A stretch of 27,181 nt of DNA from Myxococcales bacterium (lineage in GTDB: Bacteria; Myxococcota_A; Polyangia; Palsa-1104; JAEUJZ01): contig JAEUJZ010000076.1 in NCBI GenBank assembly GCA_016794505.1, positions 192,001 to 219,181 of the forward strand, read 5' to 3'. Shown piece after piece: positions 2,771 through 27,181 of this stretch; position 1 is the first letter of the stretch, and each line of letters starts with the position of its first letter. Under the pieces are notes generated by a model that worked only from the letters and a program-made list of their open reading frames with translations, searched no databases and was not told the origin of the DNA. The position numbers and the translations under genes were made by a program.

Positions 2771-5075
2771 GGGTCCCCGCGCTGCGCTGGGTGGACGTGC
2801 GTGCGGCATCTGGCGCATTGCCCCTCCAGGCCGTGCGCAGCTCGCGCATCGTCAGCGCGCCATGGCCGACAAGCTGGAAGTCGCTGCCGCCCACTTCGCC
2901 CAGCACGTGATAAGGCACTGCGTGTACATCGGCAAGCTGGCGCAGCGCTGCAACACGCTGTCGATCGAGCCACGCCAGAACCTGCGCGGGCTGTTCGCCA
3001 AATGCTTGAAAGTGTGGACGCGGACTCGCGGGCAAAGACAGCGCGGCCCCGATGTCGCTGCGCAGGCAGAGCTTGGCGAGCGCGATCACAAGACCTCCCT
3101 GCGTGACCGCGGACAGACCGGCGACGGCATCCGCGGCGATCAGCGCACACAGCAAGCGAGCCACGCGCTGCTCTGCCGAAAGATCACAGCGCGGCGAGCC
3201 CACATCGCTGCCATAGCGCAAGCGGGTGTATTGGGCAGCGCCAGGCTCATCGGACAACTCGCCGAGCACGAGCAGCGTATGGCCTGCCTGCAGCCGCGCC
3301 CGCGGCACCTTGCGAACATCGGGCACCACACCCAGCGCACCGACCATTGGCGTCGGTGGGATGGGGCCGCGCGGCGACTCGTTGTACAGCGAGACATTGC
3401 CCCCCGTGACCGGCACACCAAGCTGGCGCAGGCCATCGCCCAAGCCAGCGATCACCTCGGCGATGCGGCGATGTTCGATGGGATCACGCGGCGATGCGAA
3501 GTTGAGCCCATCGGTGATGGCGAGAAGCTCGGCACCGACGCAGGCCAGGCGGCGTGTGGCTTCAGCCAAAGCCGCCTGCGCACCGCGATATGGATCAACG
3601 GCACACAGATCGCCGCGGCCAGAAAGCGTCAGCGCAACACCGCGCATGCTGTCAGGCAAGCGCAAGACCGCGGCCGAAGCCTGCCCTGGACCGCAGACGG
3701 TGCGGTTGCCAACGGTCTGATCGAACTGCGAATAGATCGGCTCGGCATCCGCGCACTGCGCCAGCAACTTCTGCAGTGTCGTCAGCAGCGGCTCGTGCGG
3801 CGTGTTGTGATCAGCAGGCAGCTCGGGAAGCGGTGGCAGCGCAGCCGCGATGGCAAAGCGACTCGCGGGTGCCCCACCTGCGACCAAGCGCGCCGGCAGA
3901 TCGATGCAGACGCTCTGCTCTTTGCGCACCCGCACGCGCCCGCTGTCCGTCAAGACTGCGATGGCGGCTGCCGTCAGGCCGACGGAGCGAAAGTGCTCAA
4001 GAGCTGCCGGTACGTGCTCGGGCTGCACCACCAGCGCGAAGCGCTCTTGCGATTCAGAAAGGAAGATCTCAAGCGCGGTCATGTCGGCTTCGCGCAGCGG
4101 CACCGACGAAAGATCGACGTCCATTCCCACGCCGCCGAGCGCTGCCATCTCGAACGTCGCGCAGGCAATGCCGCAGGCGCCCAGGTCCTGCACCGCCACC
4201 GGGCCTAGCTCGGCAGGAAACGACAGCACGGCCTCCATCAGCAGCTTGCCGGCGAATGGATCGCCCACCTGGATGTGCGAGCGGCGTGTGCGGTTTTGTT
4301 CCTGCGAGCCCAGCGCCTCGCTGGCAAACGCGGCTCCCAAAATTCCATCGCGTCCGGTGGCCGCCCCGACCAGCAGCACGACGTTGCCGGTTCCGTGCGC
4401 GCGTGCCGTGCGCTGCGCATGCGGGCGGATCAGACCCGCGGCCAGCGCGTTGACGAGCGGGTTGCCTTCATATCCTGGGTGGTGCTGCGTGCGTCCGCCA
4501 ATATTGGGAATGCCGATGGCGTTGCCATACCCCGCGATGCCAGCCACCACCCCGCGCTGGATGCGCGCGGTCTGCGGGCTCTGCGCGTTGCCAAAGCACA
4601 GAAAGTCGAGCAGCGCACACGGTCGCGCGCCCTGGGCGATGACATCGCGCAGGATGCCCCCCACGCCCGTTGCTGCGCCCTGATATGGCTCGACGGCGCT
4701 GGGGTGATTGTGGCTCTCGATCTTAAACGCCACAGCCCAGCCCTCGCCGACATCAACGACCCCCGCGTGACTGCCGGGTCCAGCCAAGACACCGCGGCCT
4801 TCTTTCGGCAGGGTCGCAAGCAAGTGGCGCGTCGACTTGTATGAACAGTGCTCGCTCCACATGCCCGAAAAGACAGCAAGCTCTTCGTGCGTGGGGATGC
4901 GTTCCAGCGCGCTGCGGATCGTCTGATACTCGTGCGGCAACAGCCCCATCGCTTCTGCCAAGCGCGCTGCGGATCCTTCATCGTGCTCGTCGCGGTCAAG
5001 CCGTCGCGCGTCCAGGTCCGCCCCTGCGCTGCTGTGCGCGGGCTGCGCATCGTGTTCTCGTGTGGCGATCGTCAT
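2760..5075 (-). CDS. purL: Phosphoribosylformylglycinamidine synthase subunit II (small-type PurL)
   Basis: 771 aa with FSGMWSEHCSYKSTRHLL and duplicated AIRS-like domains, which is the split-type PurL. The start overlaps the purQ stop (ATGA). Confidence 0.94.
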   Translation of the reverse strand: MTIATREHDAQPAHSSAGADLDARRLDRDEHDEGSAARLAEAMGLLPHEYQTIRSALERIPTHEELAVFSGMWSEHCSYKSTRHLLATLPKEGRGVLAGPGSHAGVVDVGEGWAVAFKIESHNHPSAVEPYQGAATGVGGILRDVIAQGARPCALLDFLCFGNAQSPQTARIQRGVVAGIAGYGNAIGIPNIGGRTQHHPGYEGNPLVNALAAGLIRPHAQRTARAHGTGNVVLLVGAATGRDGILGAAFASEALGSQEQNRTRRSHIQVGDPFAGKLLMEAVLSFPAELGPVAVQDLGACGIACATFEMAALGGVGMDVDLSSVPLREADMTALEIFLSESQERFALVVQPEHVPAALEHFRSVGLTAAAIAVLTDSGRVRVRKEQSVCIDLPARLVAGGAPASRFAIAAALPPLPELPADHNTPHEPLLTTLQKLLAQCADAEPIYSQFDQTVGNRTVCGPGQASAAVLRLPDSMRGVALTLSGRGDLCAVDPYRGAQAALAEATRRLACVGAELLAITDGLNFASPRDPIEHRRIAEVIAGLGDGLRQLGVPVTGGNVSLYNESPRGPIPPTPMVGALGVVPDVRKVPRARLQAGHTLLVLGELSDEPGAAQYTRLRYGSDVGSPRCDLSAEQRVARLLCALIAADAVAGLSAVTQGGLVIALAKLCLRSDIGAALSLPASPRPHFQAFGEQPAQVLAWLDRQRVAALRQLADVHAVPYHVLGEVGGSDFQLVGHGALTMRELRTAWRGNAPDAARTSTQRSAGTHVS

Positions 5076-5800
5076 GCCGACTCCTGGCTCGTCAAGAACT
5101 GCCGAGCCGATTGAAACAGCGCTGCGCCATCGTCCGATCCCAGGACCGCTTCGCAGGCTCGCTCGGGATGCGGCATGATGCCGAGCACGCGACCGCTGTC
5201 ATCGAGCACCGCCGCGGTATCTGCCAGCGAGCCGTTGGGGTTTTCGCAGTAGACCAGTGGCACGCGCGTCGCGATCACGTCGTCCCCTTGCGGATGGACA
5301 TAGCGACCTTCGGCATGCGCGATCGGCATGCGCAGCCGGTCGCCTACGCGAGCCTGCCCAAACCACGGGCTCTGGTTTCGCAGGGCAGCCGGCGTGACCT
5401 CGACTTCGATCCAGCGATGCACGAAGCGCGGTGGCTGATTGTACGAGAGCGCCCCCGGCAAGATCCCCGCTTCAACGAGGATCTGAAAGCCGTTGCACAC
5501 GCCGATCACCAGCCCCCCTGCGGCGAGCCACGCTGGCAGCGACTGCACCGCGCGAGCGCGACTGGCCAACATGCCGGCCCGCCAATAGTCGCCGTATGAA
5601 AAGCCACCCGGTAAGCCGACCAGATCGACATCGGCTGGCAGCGCCATGTGGGCCGGATGAAGGCGCGCTGAAAAGCCCGACAGGTTCAGCGCCTCTAGAA
5701 GATCGCGATCTCCGTTGCTGCCCGGAAAGACCACGACTGCTGCGCGTGGAGTACGACCGCGACCGCGGCCGGAATCATTCACAGCCGCGGCCGGGGTCAT
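5072..5800 (-). CDS. purQ: Phosphoribosylformylglycinamidine synthase subunit I (glutaminase, PurQ)
   Basis: AAVVVFPGSNGDRD...GVCNGFQILVEAGILPG is a class-I glutamine amidotransferase with the catalytic Cys in the GVCNGFQ motif. The true start may be a later codon than the ORF-track M. Confidence 0.9.
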   Translation of the reverse strand: MTPAAAVNDSGRGRGRTPRAAVVVFPGSNGDRDLLEALNLSGFSARLHPAHMALPADVDLVGLPGGFSYGDYWRAGMLASRARAVQSLPAWLAAGGLVIGVCNGFQILVEAGILPGALSYNQPPRFVHRWIEVEVTPAALRNQSPWFGQARVGDRLRMPIAHAEGRYVHPQGDDVIATRVPLVYCENPNGSLADTAAVLDDSGRVLGIMPHPERACEAVLGSDDGAALFQSARQFLTSQESA

Positions 5801-6081
5801 GGCTGACCTTCCCGGTACACGGCAGACGCCGCGGGCTTGGCAGCCGACCGCAGCACATAGGTCTCAAGCAGAGGATTCACCAACATGCCTTCACAGACAG
5901 CACGCGCCTTGGCTGCCGCTTGCTCGCTGTCGGCTTCGTCGACAGACAACAGCAAAAAGCGTCCAACCGACTGCGCGCTGCAGCCGTCATAGCCGCTGTC
6001 ATGCATCGCAGCCGAGATGGCATCCGCCTGTGGATCGCGCACACCCGGCCGTGGCTGCACGATGACTTCAAAGTGCGTCAT
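5797..6081 (-). CDS. purS: PurS subunit of FGAM synthase
   Basis: The ORF track gives a 146-aa ORF. The conserved ~94-aa PurS core begins at the internal Met, MTHFEVIVQPRPGVRDPQADAI...VNPLLETYVL. The ATG at 6079-6081 overlaps the purC TGA (ATGA coupling). Confidence 0.85.
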   Translation of the reverse strand: MTHFEVIVQPRPGVRDPQADAISAAMHDSGYDGCSAQSVGRFLLLSVDEADSEQAAAKARAVCEGMLVNPLLETYVLRSAAKPAASAVYREGQP

Positions 6082-6818
6082 GCGACCTCTTGATGCGAAA
6101 AGGCGGGCACTTGCAGAGCTGGTATTTTTTCCAGTCGCGCAAGCAGCGCCGCGTAGGTTGGCACTAGCTCGGCAAGGTCTTGGCGAAAGACGTCTTTGTC
6201 GAGCACTTGACCGCTGTGAACATCCCGAAAGCGGCACGTGTCCGGCGAGATCTCATCGGCCAGCCACACCCTGCCATCGGCACGCCCGAACTCGAACTTC
6301 AGATCAAACAGCGCCACATCGGCTTGCAGAAACAGCGTGCGCAGCGCCTGTGCTGCGGTCAAAGCCAAGCTGCGCAGCGTCGCAAGCTCAGCCGGCGACG
6401 CGATGCCAAGCAGCCGCACATGATCGTCGTTGATCAGCGGATCGCTGAGATCATCGCGCTTGTAATAAAGCTCGCAAACCGGCGGCGTGCAGGGATGCCC
6501 GTACGGCAGTCCGGTTCGCGTACAAAGCGAGCCCGCCACTGCGAAGCGCACGACCACTTCCAGCGGAATGATCTCGACCGCGCGGCAGATCAGCGTGCGC
6601 TCATCTTTGCGCTGCACAAGATGCGTAGGAATCTGCTCGCGCGCTAGATACGCCAGCAATCGCTCGCTGATGCGACAGCACAGCTCTCCTTTGCCGGGAA
6701 ATGTCGCGCGCTTCTTGCCATTCCCCGCTGTCGCGTCGTCCTTGAAATAGATCTCGGCCAGTCCATTGGGCAGCAGTCGGACCTGCTTGGCTTTGCCCTC
6801 GTACAGATCATCTCGCAT
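6078..6818 (-). CDS. purC: SAICAR synthetase (PurC)
   Basis: MRDDLYEGKAKQVRLLPNGLAEIYFKDDATA is the typical PurC N-terminus, 246 aa. An AAGGAAG Shine-Dalgarno lies 9 nt upstream of the ATG. Confidence 0.93.
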   Translation of the reverse strand: MRDDLYEGKAKQVRLLPNGLAEIYFKDDATAGNGKKRATFPGKGELCCRISERLLAYLAREQIPTHLVQRKDERTLICRAVEIIPLEVVVRFAVAGSLCTRTGLPYGHPCTPPVCELYYKRDDLSDPLINDDHVRLLGIASPAELATLRSLALTAAQALRTLFLQADVALFDLKFEFGRADGRVWLADEISPDTCRFRDVHSGQVLDKDVFRQDLAELVPTYAALLARLEKIPALQVPAFSHQEVA

Positions 6819-7028
6819 GCACGCTGTCTTCCTTGCGAAGCGCTGCGTTGTTTGCCGTGAGATCGCGCAACCTTTGCACGCCGCGGTGAGTGCATCCCGC
6901 GCTGTGTTTTGTTGCGCGCAATGGGTGCTTCATCGGCCTTTCAAAGTCAAGTGACGTTTTTGTTTCTGAAGGAAAAAAAACGGAACGCGCTTGACGCAAG
7001 CCACCGGAACTCGCTAGAAGCACGCCCC
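6819..7028. promoter_or_regulatory. Divergent intergenic control region between purC (minus) and pyrD (plus); candidate sigma70-like promoter for pyrD and candidate purC promoter
   Basis: The region has an A8 run at 6973-6980. On the plus strand TTGACG (6991-6996) is followed by an 18-nt spacer and TAGAAG (7015-7020). On the minus strand TTGACT is followed by ~17 nt, upstream of purC. Hexamer assignments are weak. Confidence 0.3.
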
Positions 7029-8087
7029 GTGAGCGAACCAACTGCACGTGTGCTGAGTTCCTCGCTGCCCGCTTTCGATCGCGCCGATCATCGCGAGATC
7101 ACGGAAGCGTCAGCGGATCCTGGTTTGCCGCTGCGCTCTGCGCCGCGCGACCGTTCTTTAAGTGAACGCGATCCGTTCTTTGCACTGTCGGCACGCAGTC
7201 CGCTGTGGGCGGCCGCGGGTCCATGGTCAAGCGGCGAACAGAGCGCGGATGCGCTGTCGACAGCCGGTGCGGTGGTCGCCAAGACCGTCACGGCAGAGCC
7301 ACGAGCCGGCAATCCTCCGCCCGTCTTACACAAGTATGCGGGTGGAAGTGGCGGCTATCTGAATCGCATTGGCCTGCGCAATGTCGGTGCCGCCGAGTTC
7401 GCGCGAGCGCGCTTGCCGATTGTGCGCGCCTGCAACGCGCCAACGATTCAGAGCTTCACCGCACAGACCGAAGCTGAAGTCGAAGCGATTCTGCAGGTGT
7501 TCACACCCGAAGCCATCGTGGGATATGAGCTCAATGCCTCGTGTCCCAATGCTCCCTCGGGTCAGCTCGATGATGCGGTCTTGCGAGCGGTGCTGCGCTG
7601 CGCCCGTCGGCTTTCGCCGCGGCCGATCTGGGTCAAGCTTGCCTATGCACCGGCCGAGCTGTTGCGGTCCCGAGCTCGCATCTGCGCCGACGAAGGTGCC
7701 GATGGCATCACCGCCATCAACACCCTGCCTGCGCTGGCCGTGACGCTGCCAAGCATCGACTCTGCGCAGCGCAAACCCGATGATCCCTTTTTGTTTCGCG
7801 GGGGCGTGTCAGGTCCTACGCTGACGCCGCTTGCGCAGTGGGCCGTCGACTTCCTGGTGCGCGAGCAGCCGCTGCCTGTGATCGCCTGTGGCGGCGTCGG
7901 ATCGCTGCACGAGGTCTTGGCCTTTGCCGCGCTGGGAGCGAGCGCCGTCCAAGTGGGCTCGGCCCTGCTCGATGACGCGACCGTGCTGCGCCGCTTGCAG
8001 CGCGAGCTAGCGCACGCCGCGCAGCGCGCCCAGATCACATCGTGGAATGAGCTCGTCGAGGTCCTATGTCCGCACAAGCGAAGCTAG
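7029..8087 (+). CDS. pyrD: Dihydroorotate dehydrogenase, class 1 (Cys active-site base), catalytic subunit
   Basis: GNPPPV...GGYLNRIGLRNVG...ELNASCPNAP...PIWVKLAY...ITAINTLP...GGVSGP...IACGGVGS match the class-1 DHODH motifs. The ORF-track start at 6909 is TTG. The core begins near DPFFALSARSPLWAAAG. I chose the in-frame GTG at 7029, with GTG 7050 as an alternative, so the start is uncertain. Confidence 0.85.
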   Translation: MSEPTARVLSSSLPAFDRADHREITEASADPGLPLRSAPRDRSLSERDPFFALSARSPLWAAAGPWSSGEQSADALSTAGAVVAKTVTAEPRAGNPPPVLHKYAGGSGGYLNRIGLRNVGAAEFARARLPIVRACNAPTIQSFTAQTEAEVEAILQVFTPEAIVGYELNASCPNAPSGQLDDAVLRAVLRCARRLSPRPIWVKLAYAPAELLRSRARICADEGADGITAINTLPALAVTLPSIDSAQRKPDDPFLFRGGVSGPTLTPLAQWAVDFLVREQPLPVIACGGVGSLHEVLAFAALGASAVQVGSALLDDATVLRRLQRELAHAAQRAQITSWNELVEVLCPHKRS

Positions 8088-13167: not shown

Positions 13168-13386
13168 GCCATCCTGCCATCGCTGCAACGTCGACTAAAG
13201 GGCGCTGAACTGTTGCCGCAACAGCCCCGCATCGGACGAAACGTTCGCGCCTGCCCGACGCGGCTTTTGGTGCAGCGACCTCGATGAAGACGGCGCGATC
13301 TGGCCAGGCATCGCTGCATGCGGCGGTCAGGCCTGAAACGCAGGCTGCAAAGGGGCCAAACAGGGACCGCAGAGTCACCGCGGGCT

Positions 13387-15166
13387 TCAGCGCGAGGATG
13401 CATGGGCTACGCAGTCCTCGGCCGTGGGCACGCGGGGGATGACGATGTTCGTGTTGTTGGGATCGAACTGCGCCGGCAAATGGCAGCGAAGGAACGCCGC
13501 AAGCTGCTCGGGCCCGCGCGCTTCGGGCGAGACGTCCCATATGCGCGCCGTCTTGTCCCAGCTCGCGGTGACGATGCGCCGACCATCCGGGCTATACATC
13601 GCGCCCACCACGCTGCCCCCGTGGCCCATGAGAACGGCCTTGGGAGCGCCTGCGGCGTGGACTGTACTCGCGAGCAAGTCAGGCAGTGCCGCATCCTTGC
13701 TGCCTTCCGCCTGGGCTCGATGCAGCCAGAGCAGTCCTTCACTGGGGTTGCCGCGCTCAAAGACCAGCTGCCTGCCGCGCTCCACATACTCCAGGTGCGC
13801 AGCGCCGCCCAGTGATCGAACAGCGCCTCGTGCGTGACCTCGGCCAGAGGCTCAGCCCCGTCGCCGCTCAGCGTCACCAGGCGCGCCTGTTCGGTGGCAA
13901 ATTTTCGCAGCACCCCGAGCACACGCGCTTCCGTCTCGCCCCGCCCGCACAGCTCAGAAATCGGAGCCCGACGCCGCGTGTCGCGCGTGCCTTCGCCGAG
14001 CCGCACCAAGCGCACCAGCGCCCGCTGCGCCGTCGCTTGCTTGCTCGGATCGAGCTGGTTGCAGATCGCCTGCGCCTTGCCGGCCAGCGCACCGCCGACG
14101 CCGCCCATTTTTCGCAGCGTCTCGCCGGGCTCTTGGCCTGCGTGCATGCCCTCCCAAATGTTCGTCAGCGCAAACTCAAGCAGCGGCAGCGTGCCTTCGT
14201 TGCCCCAAGCCTGATCGAGCAGCAGCTCGACCGTCGCATCGTCGATCGGCTGGCCGGCTTGTGCGGCGGGCTCTGTGATGGCCTGGCGCAGCTCGTCGCG
14301 GTTCATCGCCGTCACGATGACTTCCTGCGCGCCAATCAAGCGATGGAGCTCGACGTGATGGCGGTGCGTCTCACCCAGGAAGTCGCTGCGCAGCGTCAGC
14401 ACGATCGACACATGACGGCTGCGCGCGGCGGCGGCGTGAAGCAGGACACCGATGAAGGCCTCGCGCTCGTCCTTGTGGCTGCACAGCGTGTAGACCTCTT
14501 CAAGCTGATCGACCAACACGACAAACGGCGACCGCTCGACGCCGGGCCGACTCGCCGCCCACTGGCTGAGCCCATCGAATTCGCCGCGCCCATTGGGCTT
14601 GCGCAGAAAGTCGGCCAGGTCCCGCTGCGCCGATAGCTCGGCTGCCGTCGCCGGATTGTGGCCCGGTGGCAAGAGCGCCATCGCCAGCACGCCGACCGGA
14701 TGTTCCCCGGCTTGAACGCGATGGACTGCAGCGGATCCGGCCCCGGAATCGGCGCGGTCTGAAGCTCGGCCAAAAGCCCCGCTCGCGCCACCGACGACTT
14801 GCCCGAGCCCGACGGCCCCAGCACCGCCAAAAGCCGCGTCGATCCCGCCTGCTCGTACAGCGCCTTGAAGCGCTGCCAAAGTCGCTCGGTCAGCTCGTCG
14901 CGGCCAAAGAACAGGTCGGTCTCGTCGACTTGGAACGCCGACAGCCCACGATACGGATTCTTCGCGGCCTGGCCCGCTGCCGACCGAGGCGACAAGAGCA
15001 GCCGCTTGTGCCGCGCAGCGCGTCGCGGATTCCTTTTCGAAAGGGCCGCGACCAGCTCTTCGCCGTCGACGATCTGCCGTTTATGGGCTCGGCTGCGTCC
15101 CGTGGCTTCGCAGCGTTCACCTCGTCCGCCCCATCGGCCTGACTGCTGTGTCCGCTCTCTGGTCAT
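13387..15166 (-). pseudogene. Degraded STAND (NACHT-like) NTPase with a single C-terminal WD40 repeat, disrupted by two frameshifts and truncated
   Basis: Three consecutive reading frames carry successive parts of one protein. Frame 1 (ORF 14396..15232) has NPYRGLSAFQVDETDLFFGRDELTERL...LAVLGPSGSGKSSVARAGLLAEL, i.e. Walker A. Frame 2 (ORF 13407..14879) has HRVQAGEHPVGVLAMALLPPGHNP...VVLVDQLEE (Walker B-like)...LPLLEFALTNIWE...EALFDHWAALRTW. Frame 3 (ORF 13387..13785) has ERGRQLVFERGN...LMGHGGSVVGAMYSPDGRRIVTASWDKTARIWDV, one WD40 repeat, then a stop. The frame switches fall near 14725-14740 and near 13790. Confidence 0.6.
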
Positions 15167-15725
15167 TCTTGCAAAATATCTGCATTCATATTTGAATATT
15201 AAAATCAAACCCATAATTAGTTTACTTGCCATACATCACCTGCAATTCACGATGCGCCATGTAGTAATTTACATAAATATAATATCTCCAATAAAACTCT
15301 ATCGACTCTACACGGGATCCACTATCTGCATTTGACAGGAAAAACCAAGCGGCTCCACAGGGTCTCATTTCGGCAATGATCTCGCGACTTCGCTCTAGAG
15401 CGTTTGCTCCATCCGCCGACATTACCGCCAGGGAGGTCCACCGACAGAGTGGCTTGCCTTGCAATGTTTGCACAGATAAACAAATCATCCACATTGATTA
15501 TTGAAACGGATAGGCATGTCACTAATAACATTCTTCATACATTCCAGATAAATCAGGATTATTTTCAATGATAAATTAACGTGTGAATCGACACAAAAAA
15601 CAGAACCCAGCGGCCGCGTACGACCGCAGGCCATGCCGAGCTTGGGGCGCGCACGGCCGATACGAAAAAAGGATTTTGATACTGTCTAAAACAAGCTACG
15701 ATAGGTTCCTATGAGGAGTATTGGC

Positions 15726-16265
15726 ATGCGACATGGTGAGATCCTGCCTGTTGTATTTTCGCTGAGTATGACCGCTTGCTTTGGGATGTTTGGGGACTCA
15801 AGCAGAGACGAGGCGACCCCAGGGCGAAGCCGCTTTCCCATCAGACCACTGCCGCGGGTCGCGATGGAAAACCCCGCGCTGCTCGATGCCGCCATTCGGG
15901 GGCTAAACCCGTCGGATAAGGAATATCAGCTCTTCCATGCCCACATCGCGAGCCAGCCAAGGTACATGCGGCACCAGATGTCCGGGCAGCTTATAGCCCG
16001 ATGTTACGACTTCGCCCTCGTCTACCACACCCGCACGACGCCGCCGGCCTGCCACTGGAGCGTCTTTCGACTCTGCCAAGAACACCTGGGCAACGGCACC
16101 TTTGCCGAAGAGCTGACCGTCCCCCGCCTTTCAATCGCCATCGCCTCCGGGGGAATCGAGTGCAACAGCCCCGAATTGCCGCCAGGGGTTGCTCCGAAGC
16201 AGCCTCCTCCCGCGGCGACGGCACCCGCGGCGACGGCACCCGCGGCGACGGCACCGCCGCAGTAG
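15726..16265 (+). CDS. Small secreted or lipoprotein-like hypothetical protein with a C-terminal (ATAPA)3 repeat
   Basis: GAGGAG lies 6 nt upstream of the ATG at 15726 (the ORF track starts at 15711). The N-terminus MRHGEILPVVFSLSMTAC is a hydrophobic h-region ending in Cys, a non-canonical lipobox. The C-terminus reads AATAPAATAPAATAPPQ. Confidence 0.5.
   Translation: MRHGEILPVVFSLSMTACFGMFGDSSRDEATPGRSRFPIRPLPRVAMENPALLDAAIRGLNPSDKEYQLFHAHIASQPRYMRHQMSGQLIARCYDFALVYHTRTTPPACHWSVFRLCQEHLGNGTFAEELTVPRLSIAIASGGIECNSPELPPGVAPKQPPPAATAPAATAPAATAPPQ
16212..16256. repeat. 15-bp perfect or near-perfect tandem repeat x3 (gcggcgacggcaccc) inside the 3' end of the CDS above
   Basis: Direct reading: gcggcgacggcaccc gcggcgacggcaccc gcggcgacggcaccg. 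It encodes the ATAPA repeats. Confidence 0.9.
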
Positions 16266-16294: not shown

Positions 16295-16369
16295 CATCCC
16301 CTGCTCCGTAAGCACGCTGCATCCCTTGCTCTGTAAGTACGCTGCATCCCTTGCTCCGTAAGCACGGCC
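16295..16369. repeat. 25-bp tandem repeat x3 in the non-coding region downstream of the lipoprotein gene
   Basis: The copies are catcccctgctccgtaagcacgctg / catcccttgctctgtaagtacgctg / catcccttgctccgtaagcacggcc, with few mismatches. Confidence 0.85.
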
Positions 16370-24310: not shown

Positions 24311-24410
24311 CGAGCCACTGGATGTCCCTTTTCGCACCACCCTTGCATGCTACGGACACCGCCGAAAAAAAGACAAGCGCCCCGCCCATCCTCGCCGTCC
24401 TCTGGGGCGA

Positions 24411-24434
24411 CTTCTCGGCTTGCTTCTCGGCTTG
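24411..24434. repeat. 12-bp perfect tandem duplication (cttctcggcttg x2) in the EBP/hypothetical-gene divergent intergenic region
   Basis: Seen directly in the sequence. It lies 55 nt upstream of the ATG at 24489. Confidence 0.8.
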
Positions 24435-24488
24435 CCTGGGATCGGATGACTGCGTACGCTGCCGCCACATTTCCCCAAGGAGGGTCCG

Positions 24489-25235
24489 ATGGCCTCGAAA
24501 CAAGTCCTCGATCGACAGAAACTGACGAGCCTCGTCGTCGCCGCCGGGCAGAGCCATGGCGCCCTGATCGCGCAGCGCCTGGGCGACACGCTCTTGCCCT
24601 ACGTCAAGCGCGGCGAGACGCTGCCTGACCTCAAGCTCGTGTCCGATCTCTGTCTGCGCTGGCTGTCCGACGCCGAGTCCACGCTCGTCGCAGCCGATCT
24701 CGCCCACGAGCGCGAGCTGGCCGATGACTCGGAACCGCGCCGCCGCCGCGATGAGCACGCCGCCGCCCTGCGCGAGCAGCTCATCGACCTGCGCGATCTC
24801 GTCAGCGCGCTGTATGGAACCGATGCCACCCTCGCCCTGGGCATGTCCGGCGAGACCCCCACCGACGCCGTGGCCCTGTCGCGTCAGGGTAAGAACGTCC
24901 TTTTGGCCCTCGCTAGCGTGCGCCTGCCCAAGCCGCGCCGTCGCGGTGCCGAGCTTTCCCCCAAAGAGATCGAGGCCGAGCTAAAGCCCGCCGTAGCCGC
25001 CCTCGATCAGGCGCTCGCCGACGTCGCCCGCGAGTCCCGCGAGGCCCAAGCGACCCTGGCCGCCCGCGACACCGCCTGGGCTGAATTCGAGCGCCGCTAC
25101 AGCGCCACCACCGCCGTCCTCGCCGCCCTCCTCGCTGCAGCCGGCGAGACCGCCCTCTCTGAAAAGCTGCGCCCCAGCGCCGGCCGCAAGCCGCAACCCC
25201 AGCCCGAACCCGAGCCCGCCCCCGCCCCCACCTAA
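24489..25235 (+). CDS. Hypothetical acidic, predominantly helical protein with a C-terminal PQPEPEPAPAP low-complexity tail
   Basis: AAGGAGGG lies 5 nt upstream of the ATG. The product is 248 aa with no TM segment and no recognisable motif. It is divergent from the sigma-54 EBP gene. Confidence 0.55.
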   Translation: MASKQVLDRQKLTSLVVAAGQSHGALIAQRLGDTLLPYVKRGETLPDLKLVSDLCLRWLSDAESTLVAADLAHERELADDSEPRRRRDEHAAALREQLIDLRDLVSALYGTDATLALGMSGETPTDAVALSRQGKNVLLALASVRLPKPRRRGAELSPKEIEAELKPAVAALDQALADVARESREAQATLAARDTAWAEFERRYSATTAVLAALLAAAGETALSEKLRPSAGRKPQPQPEPEPAPAPT

Positions 25236-25296
25236 CAGCCCCCAGCCAAGCCTTCCTTACATGTAGGGAAAGCTCCCCGAAACGCCTGTTCTAAAT

Positions 25297-25492
25297 TAAA
25301 ACGCGCGCTCCAAGCCCTCCCAAACGCCTCCCAAAATTTACGACGCCCCCGAAAAGCCCTGCCAAACGCCCCCAAAAACTCAGAACACCCGCTCCAACCC
25401 CTCCCGAGCGCCTCCCAAAATTTCCGACCCCCCCAAAAAACCCTTCCGACCCCCCCAAGACATACGACGCCCCCAAAAACCCCTTCCGATCC
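25297..25492. repeat. Duplicated ~90-100-bp C/A-rich element (the plus strand is C-rich and G-poor; the minus strand carries G4-G7 tracts) in a convergent intergenic gap
   Basis: The two copies share cgctccaa[g/c]ccctccc[aaac/gagc]gcctcccaaaattt[a/c]cgac... and acgacgccccc[g]aaaa[g]ccc. On the minus strand the runs GGGGGG, GGGG, GGGGG, GGGGGGG, GGG and GGGGGGG are closely spaced. Confidence 0.8.
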
Positions 25493-25521
25493 CCCCGCTT
25501 TAGAGCATGTTCAAGCTCCGG

Positions 25522-25866
25522 CTAGATGTGCTTCACATTCGCGCCCGCCTCGCGCGCATCCAGCTCTGTCTGCACGCGATCCAGCAAGGTCTGCAGCCAC
25601 TGCCGCTGCTCCGCTTCGGTGACGAGGTAGCGGTTGGCGTTGGTCGCGATCAGTCGCAGCGGCAATTCATGTTGGCCCAGAAAACGCTGAGCATCTGCTA
25701 GCACCTTCACTATCCAGCTTGGATCGTATTCCAGAACCGCTTGTTGCGTAATCTCCGCGTCCGTCTGGCCATCGTCGGGATCAGCGAACAACGCCAACAG
25801 GGTGGACAAACTTCGGTACTCCTCAAAGAATCGCTTTTCCTCATTTGAGGTAGGCCGTGAGGACAT
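25522..25866 (-). CDS. Small hypothetical protein (114 aa), third gene of the putative toxin/immunity module
   Basis: A strong RBS (AAGGAGG) lies 6 nt upstream of the ATG at 25866. The product is acidic and helical (…LADAQRFLGQHELPLRLIATNANRYLVTEAEQRQWLQTLLDRV). No family was recognised. Confidence 0.55.
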   Translation of the reverse strand: MSSRPTSNEEKRFFEEYRSLSTLLALFADPDDGQTDAEITQQAVLEYDPSWIVKVLADAQRFLGQHELPLRLIATNANRYLVTEAEQRQWLQTLLDRVQTELDAREAGANVKHI

Positions 25867-25948
25867 AGAAGCCTCCTTGCAAGTCTCGCTCTAGAACCAC
25901 CTTCGCCACAGTGTGCGGCGTTGCCCGCAGCGACCCGTTGCCGAGCCC

Positions 25949-26575
25949 TCAAAACCAGTGCGCCGCTTCCTCCGCCGGCACGAGCGGGCAATTCAACAGC
26001 CCATTCTCCTCGACGAACCGCTTGAAGTGCTCGTCGACCAGCACCTCGCCAAAGCCGCGCACCGTGCAGATGTTTTCGCGTGGTTCTTCTTCCAGCACGA
26101 TCCGCTCCCAGCCTTTCTTGATTCCGCCCTCGCGGCACACGTCACATGGCGGCGATGGTGGCTCCACCCACTGCATGCCTGAGGCCACAAAATCGAGCGC
26201 CGCCTGCGAGCGCTGCGCCACGACGCGGAAGTACGCGGGCGGTGCGTCCTTGAAGCGCTTGCCACGCCGCACCACCTTCACGATCTCCACCGGCTCAAAT
26301 CCTTCCAAACCAATCAATCCCGACTTCAGCCACAGATCTTTGAAGCGCTCGCTGATCAGGATGCTCTCGCCAGGACCAAAGGCCATGTCGCCGAAGCGCT
26401 TGCCCCAGGTTTCTAGCTCGGCGCGCAGAGGGGGTGCCCAACGAAACATTCCGATCGGCCCGCCACAGGCCAGGCAGTTTGGCCCATCACTCACGTTATG
26501 CGGGTCTGCCTGGATAAAATCCGTCGTCGCCGCATAGCTGGGGTCGGTATGCTTCAGCAGATAGATCTTCTTCAT
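25949..26575 (-). CDS. Double-CxxC-motif protein (208 aa) resembling the myxobacterial 'double-CXXCG' paralogous family; candidate immunity or Zn-ribbon protein
   Basis: Two Cys pairs are present, NCLACGGP (CxxCG) and CDVCREGG (CxxC). The ATG overlaps the upstream gene's TGA (ATGA at 26572-26575). The family assignment is from memory of the TIGRFAM description, not from a search. Confidence 0.6.
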   Translation of the reverse strand: MKKIYLLKHTDPSYAATTDFIQADPHNVSDGPNCLACGGPIGMFRWAPPLRAELETWGKRFGDMAFGPGESILISERFKDLWLKSGLIGLEGFEPVEIVKVVRRGKRFKDAPPAYFRVVAQRSQAALDFVASGMQWVEPPSPPCDVCREGGIKKGWERIVLEEEPRENICTVRGFGEVLVDEHFKRFVEENGLLNCPLVPAEEAAHWF

Positions 26576-27181
26576 TTCGACTGCTCTCTCTGGATGGCTT
26601 CAAACCCGTTGGGGAAGCGCTGCTTCAGCTCGGGACGCTCATATAGCGAGCGTAGATACGCCTCGAAGTTCTCCGGTGTCGCTTTCCTGTTGTCATAGAT
26701 CCACTTCGAAATCTCCTCATCGAGTTCGCGGTGCCAGCTTTGGTACCCGCGGTGTGCGTCGTCATCTCCTGCGCGCAGCACAAAACGCGGATCCCGCGGT
26801 TGATATCGGCCGCGCAAGATGCGGTGCTCTTCTAGTGCGCGATGCACCCGCCGCGAGATCGCGTGATGCATCTGCCCTGGTTTTAACGGCGCATCGATGT
26901 GCTCTGCGATACTCGGCTTGGTGCGCAGCGGTCCGCGGCCGCCGAGCTTGCCCAAGAACGGCAACAACAACTGCGCGCCCTGCGCCTCGGGATTGCACGT
27001 GATCTCGCGATAGATCTGCATCCCGAGCACGGCGGCACGACCGCCGAAGTCGTCATTCGCAACGACGGCAGCCCAGCCTGCATCAATGCCCTGCGGAATC
27101 GGATCGAGCTTCCCTTCGCACAGCTTCGGATCCGGCTCATGGCGCATCAAGCCGTCGACGTAGTCGAGGACGGCTTTGTGC
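26572..27181 (-). CDS. C-terminal ~200 aa of a larger protein (the gene continues past the window end); His-rich motifs suggest an HNH/EndoVII-fold (AHH-like) nuclease toxin domain
   Basis: The frame stays open to the window edge (...HKAVLDYVDGLMRHEPDPK...). Motifs are GQMHHAISRRVHRALEEH (xHHxI...H...H), DDAHRGYQSWHRELDEEISKW and the tail ATPENFEAYLRSLYERPELKQ. No signal peptide is visible in this part. Confidence 0.45.
   Translation of the reverse strand, partial: HKAVLDYVDGLMRHEPDPKLCEGKLDPIPQGIDAGWAAVVANDDFGGRAAVLGMQIYREITCNPEAQGAQLLLPFLGKLGGRGPLRTKPSIAEHIDAPLKPGQMHHAISRRVHRALEEHRILRGRYQPRDPRFVLRAGDDDAHRGYQSWHRELDEEISKWIYDNRKATPENFEAYLRSLYERPELKQRFPNGFEAIQREQSK

Follow-up and report, generated by a model that had tools for sequence, protein, structure and literature searches.

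The window analyzed here is a stretch of 27,181 nt of chromosomal DNA from a high-GC myxobacterium (a Myxococcales bacterium; contig JAEUJZ010000076.1 of assembly GCA_016794505.1), and the element under study fills the gap between two convergent genes near its right end. The original prediction had read this gap as a duplicated C-rich/G-tract element and proposed that it might serve as a Rho-utilization (rut) region, form a G-quadruplex (G4) cluster or give rise to a small RNA. We show here that the gap holds a tandem array of 42-nt units, and that this array belongs to a conserved family of non-coding 41-43-nt arrays, which are linked to genes for helical proteins of ~250 amino acids (aa). 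Linkage to the gene and unit length are conserved in this family; unit sequence, copy number and base composition are not. The locus is laid out as follows (window coordinates throughout, unless another locus is named).

24489-25235, plus strand: gene (open reading frame, ORF) whose 248-aa, all-helical product is the conserved partner of the array and has no assignment in Pfam or NCBIfam
25236-25521: gap between the convergent genes, 286 nt from stop to stop
25249-25274, no strand: imperfect palindrome CCTTCCTTACATGTAGGGAAAG; arms 25249-25263 and 25260-25274, 15 nt, 87% complementary; overlaps the leader
25259-25278, plus strand: leader motif ACATGTAGGGAAAGCTCCCC with the invariant core TGTAGGGAA..CT.CC; 24 nt past the stop codon and directly 5' of the array
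25279-25302, plus strand: degenerate first half-unit with the sole A+T-rich patch, TTCTAAATTAAAA; a repeat copy spans 25285-25330
25303-25497, plus strand: tandem array in which ~4.6 units of 42 nt follow one another; the super-period is 84 nt, and there is a looser sub-period of ~21 nt
25291-25476, minus strand: Gly-rich ORF of 61 aa that starts with TTG; judged spurious
25522-25866, minus strand: convergent 114-aa gene, which bounds the element and opens a lower-GC stretch of small genes

The tandem array in the window

The segment 25236-25500 consists of 28% A, 46% C, 12.8% G and 13.2% T, and its G content is the minimum among all 265-nt segments of the window (mean 30.0%, standard deviation 4.0), which bears out the strand asymmetry originally noticed, that is, a plus strand rich in C and A and nearly free of G. 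The asymmetry is strongest in the core of the array (25315-25497; 51% C, 10% G, GC skew of -0.66 over 183 nt), where the plus strand is C/A-rich and G-depleted and the G-runs lie on the minus strand. The original prediction had also described two diverged copies of ~90-100 bp; the duplication is real, but these copies turn out to be the 84-nt super-period of a 42-nt array. Specifically, Tandem Repeats Finder reports a period of 42 with 4.1 copies over 25315-25484 (68% matches, score 151), and a repeat search returned five copies of 46 nt at spacings of 42, 42, 42 and 40 nt, along with 84-nt copies; the 84-nt halves 25293-25376 and 25377-25460 share 78.6% identity. Self-identity is 0.595 at a lag of 42 and 0.64 at a lag of 84, compared to a maximum of 0.526 over all lags in 5000 composition-matched shuffles. 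The motif CGCCCCCAAAAA (at most two mismatches) occurs nine times in the window vs. 2.2 +/- 1.3 expected, with seven of the nine occurrences inside the array, and TT(C/A)CGA cores start at 25338, 25422, 25444 and 25484. Reading along the array, A-tracts alternate with C-tracts roughly in helical phase. The AA/TT 10.5-nt periodicity was tried as a test of bending and set aside as uninformative, since a 42-nt repeat has a 10.5 harmonic by construction.

No inverted repeats were found in the units of the window's array, the repeat search returning only the leader palindrome and one weak 11-nt pair, and no further copies of the array unit or of the leader were found elsewhere in the window. Rfam 15 gave no match at gathering score in the window (only noise at E>3 in 25150-25600) and none at E<=1 in five related loci; a small RNA of a known family is thereby set aside, whereas a novel repeat RNA is the reading that we favor below. 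No tRNA or tmRNA genes were found in the window. An anti-Shine-Dalgarno (CCUCC) sponge was also considered and rejected, the motif being specific to the window's array.

Short-read contigs systematically lack the array, since almost all Logan contigs of this organism and of its close relatives (L001-L006 and L044-L046, the latter three from relatives) break inside it. Two contigs of this organism end in poly-G tails directly after ...AATTTCCG. These breaks probably reflect failed assembly of a repeat or homopolymer, together with an artefact of two-color chemistry.

Arrays of fixed unit length beside the same gene in other lineages

Flanking DNA of homologues of the 248-aa protein was taken from assemblies, GTDB genomes and metagenomes. 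Counted once each, 17 of the 20 other Polyangia/Myxococcota lineages with a homologue have a 41-43-nt tandem array no more than ~1 kb from the gene or from its operon; the three without one are L035, L039 and the fragment L036. The module is carried by Sorangium cellulosum So ce56 (NC_010162.1; gene at about 11,857,508-11,858,302 on the minus strand, array at about 11,857,194-11,857,314) and by Minicystis rosea (CP016211.1, around 141-154 kb). The array usually starts 10-230 nt past the stop codon, and in four lineages it lies upstream, either of the gene itself or of an operon. The arrays are distributed as follows.

Period 42, after the stop codon: L007, L008, L018, L019, eight Sorangium strains and L029
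Period 43, after the stop codon: L028 and L030
Period 41, after the stop codon: L031, L034 and L050 (Minicystis)
Weak period of 42 or 41, after the stop codon: L016 and L020
Upstream of the gene: L033 and L037
500-600 nt upstream of the operon: L047 and L048, the most distant loci (28-30% protein identity)

When lags of 15-60 nt were scanned, the best self-identity lag was 41, 42 or 43 in all 22 arrays. In ~300 kb of sampled flanking DNA, by comparison, unrelated repeats had scattered periods, no unrelated non-coding array of 41-43 nt was found, and the only other period-42 repeat (L031, 9182-9320) is probably coding. The sequence of the unit behaves very differently from its length: at the best rotation, units of different lineages typically share 15-22 of 42 positions vs. 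a null expectation of 17.6 +/- 1.7, with a few pairs reaching 23-26, that is, unit sequences are barely above random between lineages. In ~13 of 18 arrays, each unit contains about one TTCCG(A)-type core, and the sense strand is modestly favored, 24 to 14 (unit orientation is not comparable between distant lineages). Copy number in the relatives ranges from 2 to 7.3 and differs even between close relatives (four units in L007, two in L043). Within an array, the units are nearly the same or alternate between two subtypes, the latter frequently (the 84-nt super-period of the window, L023, L027 and L047), and hypervariable segments are absent.

Base composition and self-complementarity vary as freely. 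The GC skew of 19-21 homologous arrays lies between -0.15 and +0.22 and their G content between 21% and 42%. Many of them are strongly self-complementary, and the predicted RNA structure is inconsistent across lineages, with no preferred strand. Palindromes or inverted repeats are present in the units of many lineages, among them L007, L019, L031 and L047 (in L047, GCGTTCCAGAC-C-GTCTGGAACGC); in Sorangium, a GGAGC/GCTCC palindrome is lost without compensation in some strains. A coding repeat or Gly-rich peptide was rejected by six-frame analysis of 20 arrays, of which four (L030, L031, L033 and L034) are closed in all six frames. Since no frame stays open across the homologous arrays, the 61-aa Gly-rich ORF on the minus strand of the window, which exists and had already been taken to mirror the DNA repeat, is judged spurious.

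A few other sequences were seen in the vicinity of these arrays. L047 (3535-3620) and L048 (3265-3345) have in common a block of ~75 nt that lies between their unrelated arrays and the downstream operon and holds a promoter-like TGCAAC/TGCAGG-N17-TGTC of the extracytoplasmic function (ECF) type, together with a perfectly conserved GTGGTGTCTTTA(A/T)TAGTAGAGGGTCAC. Repeats of other kinds were noted in L021 (Sorangium So ce56; 3-1073, a 78-nt unit x 13.7), in L033 (1860-1926, a (GTTCAG)11 microsatellite just past the homologue) and in L038 (Sorangium So ce118; 13257-13408, a 21-nt unit x 7.2).

The leader motif

In the clade of the window (60-77% protein identity) the order is gene, stop codon, ~25 nt, leader and then array, and the leader core is invariant in nine aligned sequences from seven loci. 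The leader is single-copy in the window even when three mismatches are allowed; its exact 19-mer matched only four metagenome contigs, all four with the gene directly upstream, and the distant locus L033 has a 14/17 match next to its array. The original prediction had suggested searching the genome and its relatives for a dispersed repeat family; such a family is not supported, since in the window, in ~300 kb of flanking DNA and in the metagenomes array and leader were seen only beside this gene, with extra copies confined to local segmental duplicates. The opposite possibility that it had raised, a low-complexity spacer found nowhere else, is contradicted by the related arrays of the relatives.

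The predicted palindrome at 25249-25274 was found as well, with the arms listed above, but as a conserved hairpin (TACATGTA) it does not hold up: the 5' arm is not kept in orthologous loci (alignment A3), and only the 3' half, TGTAGGGAA..CT.CC, is kept, as sequence. Immediately downstream, the first half-unit of the window (25279-25302) aligns in A3 with an inverted-repeat half-unit of relatives, CGCGA...TCGCG, and covariation of the form CGCGA[T/A/G]...[A/T/C]TCGCG is seen there in L018, L008 and L046 (three species only).

The array-linked protein and its family

The 248-aa protein has 33 close homologues and belongs to a family with 2,536 representatives of 50%-identity clusters at E<=1e-3 (744 at E<=1e-30). 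Homologues are confined to Polyangia and related Myxococcota (Sorangium, Minicystis, Sandaracinus and many metagenome-assembled genomes, MAGs), and no relatives were found in a scan of viral contigs. AlphaFold2, run with the family alignment, predicts an all-helical bundle of seven helices, one of them 60 residues long (pLDDT 90, pTM 0.74). Family members are mildly acidic (pI 4.9-6.8) and have in common an invariant N-terminus (MxSK..) and a conserved ELADD..PR..RD motif.

Database searches did not place the family. Foldseek returned nothing at E < 0.001, only generic helical-bundle matches; Pfam gave no consistent match for any family member even at E <= 10; and PADLOC, PHROGs and a PDB profile search gave no match for the 248-aa protein. 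An NCBIfam 'PQLLE' identity was rejected, as the hit is sub-threshold (20.5 vs. 80 bits) in one member and absent in ten others, and no literature on it was found. Likewise rejected was a PspA/PspF-like pairing with the divergent sigma54 activator, given that this neighbor is not conserved and there is no similarity to PspA.

In a distant clade (L047 and L048) the family gene is third in an operon, after a gene for a 430-436-aa ECF sigma factor and one for a full-length paralogue (hhalign probability 99%, E 2e-18). This arrangement suggests that family proteins act as a pair and in sigma-factor signaling. The operons span 3955-6852 in L047 and 3768-6819 in L048, and their ECF sigma factor carries a long C-terminal extension. 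An ECF sigma gene also precedes the family gene in several Sorangium strains, not in the window. A promoter array for such a sigma factor, with GGAAC-N16/17-CGTC in the units, was considered and rejected: the spacing does not fit, Sorangium units have no AAC, and the sigma gene is adjacent in some lineages only.

Two further observations concern the gene itself. Its 5' untranslated region in the window contains a perfect 12-nt tandem duplication (CTTCTCGGCTTG x2, 24411-24435). In a Sandaracinus MAG (L039, 8001-12602), the stop codon of an array-free, 36%-identical homologue overlaps the beginning of the next gene, for a HerA_C/DUF87 ATPase; GmrSD and HipA-like genes come after it, in a defence-island-like context.

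Genomic context and locus dynamics

Upstream of the locus, the window encodes purine and pyrimidine biosynthesis enzymes, a LysR regulator, a short-chain dehydrogenase/reductase, FG-GAP and PEGA proteins, a seven-transmembrane Ser/Thr kinase and an FHA-sigma54 activator; a minus-strand hairpin with a T-run at 24371-24387 probably terminates the activator gene. Amid the housekeeping genes lies a 490-aa ORF (13407-14879, minus strand) of a conflict-system type (Pfam nSTAND1, novel STAND NTPase 1; E 2e-69), and two tandem repeats (15 nt x 3.1, perfect, at 16209-16255; 25 nt x 2.9, 89% matches, at 16295-16366) sit at and just past the end of a 184-aa ORF (15711-16265). Directly past the array (25500-27181), GC content falls from ~0.72 to 0.53-0.60, and the minus-strand ORFs of this stretch (114 aa, 208 aa with two CxxC(G) motifs, and 192 aa) have no family assignment, the 114-aa protein showing only faint similarity to Barstar/CdiI_2 (E about 0.1). 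The stretch looks like horizontally acquired cargo of the toxin/immunity type. The flanks of relatives carry RHS/SpvB toxins, Imm1, NACHT and AAA_21/DUF4276-type genes.

Among Sorangium strains whose proteins are 93-98% identical, synteny often extends over just ~1.2 kb, from the promoter through the gene and leader to the far end of the array, where it breaks. In four lineages the locus has undergone segmental duplication, and of one gene copy only fragments are left while its leader and/or array is retained. In L043 (reverse strand, 4846-7160), a 2.15-kb insert follows unit 1 inside the array, flanked by an 85-bp duplication and accompanied by a gene remnant of 81% identity; in L028, a 905-bp duplicate of 99.3% identity starts inside the array (430-1334 vs. 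6805-7708) and the other copy has its gene reduced to a 35-nt piece; L023 (3478-3810) and L024 (488-721) have similar segmental duplicates. No recombinase, integrase or transposase was found in the inserted segments or flanks of the duplicated loci, and a search for inverted leader or unit copies within +/-6 kb found none.

Discussion

What first draws the eye in this gap belongs to this species alone: a strand rich in C and poor in G, G4 motifs, a hairpin and a Gly-rich ORF. Neither a rut-like composition nor G4 potential can be the conserved purpose of the element because both are absent from the 19-21 homologous arrays. The lesson is that an eye-catching composition may be a species-specific overlay and the conserved signal lie elsewhere, here in the pairing of gene and array, which holds from 100% down to ~28% protein identity with the unit kept at 41-43 nt while its sequence turns over.

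We tentatively favor the hypothesis that the array is a repeated nucleic-acid partner of the adjacent protein, co-transcribed with its gene as RNA in a layout like that of type III toxin-antitoxin (TA) systems. Under this hypothesis, transcription would read through from the gene into the array, as there is no terminator between the two (a hairpin with a T-run is absent from the stop-to-array interval in every locus with a downstream array), and the array RNA would form a 3' extension of the gene's transcript. Each transcript would then carry several units of equal length for the protein to bind, and perhaps to cut. If the protein measures or packs each unit, length would be fixed while sequence would drift freely, co-drifting with the protein lineage.

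Four lines of evidence lead us to favor an RNA partner. First, no terminator intervenes where the array follows the gene, and in L047 and L048, with their arrays upstream of the operon, a strong intrinsic terminator (-21 kcal/mol plus a T-run) is found 37 nt past the gene's stop codon. Second, unit length is fixed while sequence turns over, whereas helical phasing alone would also permit units of 21, 31 or 52 bp. Third, the position of the array relative to the gene is flexible, as has been reported for type III TA and TIGR arrays (PMC3401426; bioRxiv 10.64898/2026.09.09.750476). Fourth, arrays outlive decayed gene copies (L043, L028, L023 and L024), and such persistence is compatible with a partner that does no harm, or is of use, when the protein is gone. 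In both unit length and copy number, the arrays are also inside the range of type III TA repeats (31-62 nt, 1.9-5.6 copies; PMC3401426, Table 2).

Several observations weigh against this hypothesis. Transcription of the array is an inference from sequence, and the protein is mildly acidic, has no recognizable RNA-binding, nuclease or toxin fold and finds no match in PADLOC. Predicted RNA structure differs between lineages without favoring either strand, and the Sorangium palindrome is lost uncompensated in some strains, as described above. Three homologue loci are free of arrays, and the TTCCG(A) core is soft, with only a modest sense bias. The remaining points favor the DNA level: a period of 42 equals four turns of B-DNA and the 21-nt sub-period two, many units are palindromic, and in L047 and L048 the array lies upstream of the promoter-like block, where an operator or upstream activating sequence (UAS) would sit.

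These last points belong to the principal alternative, namely that the array acts as double-stranded DNA, offering phased sites to the adjacent protein or to another factor (e.g., the ECF sigma system that is often its neighbor) within a nucleoprotein complex. We consider this somewhat unlikely, even though a period of 41-43 bp in all 22 arrays is what four helical turns would give, units often contain palindromes or inverted repeats (e.g., in L007, L019, L031 and L047), folding energy shows no consistent strand preference, and the A- and C-tracts of the window are roughly in helical phase. The arrays of L047 and L048, 500-600 nt upstream of the ECF-sigma operon and ~70-90 nt upstream of the promoter-like block, are placed accordingly, and there is a precedent in the F-plasmid sopC, which consists of 12 direct 43-bp repeats after sopB, each with a 16-bp inverted repeat (PMC3177203). 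However, an operator or UAS would have no target at most of the arrays, which sit between convergent genes, and the acidic protein has no DNA-binding fold and no ParB, Rep, helix-turn-helix (HTH) or ribbon-helix-helix (RHH) signal. Phasing alone predicts 21-, 31- and 52-bp variants, whereas the unit length is fixed, and the window's array has been kept despite the loss of all palindromes. No partition ATPase is linked.

It is also possible, but improbable, that the gap is a Rho-utilization region that terminates the mRNA of the 248-aa gene and in which the repeats are incidental. For this species the idea originally proposed has merit: the plus-strand RNA of the array core is C-rich, G-poor and essentially unfolded (minimum free energy of -5.7 kcal/mol over 183 nt, z 0.15), more than 180 nt of such sequence lie right past the stop codon, where a rut site calls for at least 70-80 nt, and no intrinsic terminator is predicted in the gap for either convergent gene. 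It fails as a general account since G content is ordinary in the homologous arrays and self-complementarity strong in many of them, and since it leaves the unit length, the leader motif and the arrays upstream of genes unexplained. To our knowledge, rut sites are not known as precise 42-nt tandem arrays tied to one gene family. The Rho idea may nonetheless coexist with the RNA-partner hypothesis as a secondary, lineage-specific feature: in this species, the G-depleted, unstructured sense strand would let Rho load past the stop codon, and it is plausible that such loading could end both convergent transcripts, which cannot be a conserved role.

That the locus is instead a hot spot of recombination or rearrangement at the edge of a variable island (an att-like site, the end of a mobile element or a site of unequal crossing-over), with functionless units, seems to us a poor bet. 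It would account for the Sorangium synteny break at the distal end of the array, for the insertion in L043 and the duplications in L028, L023 and L024, for the copy-number difference between L007 and L043, and for the drop in GC past the window's array. However, neither integrases or transposases nor inverted leader or unit copies were found, the duplications carry decayed gene remnants as ordinary rather than site-specific segmental events do, and any tandem repeat recombines, whereas the conservation of unit length down to 28% protein identity would have no explanation. Two specific forms of this idea were rejected. A Tn7- or Mu-like transposon end (a TGT terminus followed by ~22-bp sites, placed after a conserved gene) would come with transposase genes and with inverted copies within +/-6 kb, neither of which was found, and synteny breaks after the leader, not before it. 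For an integron-like or att cassette, the extra copies in the four lineages are segmental duplications with gene remnants, and there is no recombinase.

Three other explanations can be dealt with briefly. A minus-strand G4 cluster that would block transcription or replication appears highly improbable. The G-runs claimed for it are present (18 runs of at least three and five canonical motif starts on the minus strand of 25236-25500; G4Hunter above |1.5| at 25% of positions vs. 0.5% window-wide, with an extreme of -2.2), and several short-read assemblies break in the array, two with poly-G tails; yet the cluster is unique to this species' array and not a property of the family, and breaks are expected at any tandem repeat or homopolymer and also occur in L044-L046, whose arrays are not G-skewed. 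We give equally little credence to a neutral low-complexity or slippage product, or a short repeat protein, Gly-rich or other. Slippage can create tandem repeats, 42 is a multiple of three, and five of six frames are open across the window's array (hence the 61-aa ORF); however, periods of 41 and 43 exist, four arrays are closed in every frame, and slippage would not retain an array beside one gene family in 17 lineages with its length kept while its sequence turns over. Finally, a TIGR-like guide-RNA array with a divergent Tas protein, which an array beside a small helical protein gene, its flexible position and the 21+21 sub-structure of the unit might bring to mind (PMC12045711), is scarcely credible and was rejected: there is no Nop domain and there are no unit-specific spacers.

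Comparison with known systems shows how far the module departs from each of them. The closest in layout are the type III TA systems (toxIN, cptIN and tenpIN), which likewise combine one small protein gene with a short direct-repeat array whose repeats diverge fast, in chromosomal loci often found among defence or conflict genes. They differ in that the protein here is an all-helical bundle instead of a ToxN/AbiQ, CptN or TenpN endoribonuclease, and unit length is much more tightly fixed here. In type III TA loci the array is upstream with a terminator between it and the gene, while here it is usually downstream with no terminator, an order of which the type III systems offer a single known case (PMC3401426). 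Plasmid centromeres of the sopC type and iterons are alike in their direct repeats of ~4 helical turns right downstream of a gene, in lineage-specific sequence and, outside the window, in the inverted repeat of many units; here, however, there is no ParB/SopB- or Rep-like protein and no ParA-type ATPase linked in the window, the locus is chromosomal and single-copy, and the window's units lack the inverted repeat. TIGR-Tas systems also pair a compact helical protein with an adjacent array of short units of poorly conserved sequence, located upstream, downstream or on both sides (PMC12045711; bioRxiv 10.64898/2026.09.09.750476); they differ from the module in their Nop domain, which was not detected here, in their variable spacer pairs and box C/D motifs, and in a unit of 36 rather than 42 nt. 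The resemblance to rut regions is restricted to this species, and that composition is not common to the homologous arrays. REP/BIME elements are similarly species-specific, often palindromic and located between convergent genes, but they are dispersed in hundreds of copies of alternating orientation as opposed to direct repeats at a single gene-linked locus, of which ~300 kb of sampled flanks contained no other copies.

Hence, the module lacks at least one defining feature of every family considered (type III TA, TIGR-Tas, centromeres/iterons, REP/BIME and Rfam families), and we file it as a variant of a general kind, a protein gene with its own tandem-repeat nucleic-acid partner. Full-text literature searches returned nothing on this protein family or on a 42-bp repeat in myxobacteria. 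It may be, and we say so with some reserve, that the family and its array constitute an undescribed two-part protein-nucleic-acid system of Myxococcota, housed in toxin- and defence-rich variable regions; such a system could be a repeat-RNA/protein module (type III TA-like or forming a ribonucleoprotein, RNP) or an ECF-sigma-linked nucleoprotein switch. Proteins that come with their own tandem-repeat nucleic acid have often proved mechanistically rich, as CRISPR, type III TA, TIGR-Tas and plasmid centromeres illustrate. The present family is large and wholly unannotated, and occurs in organisms with large genomes and dense conflict systems. If the array is indeed the RNA or DNA partner of the protein, the pair would represent a new and experimentally tractable module, and would provide a lead to the function of thousands of hypothetical proteins.

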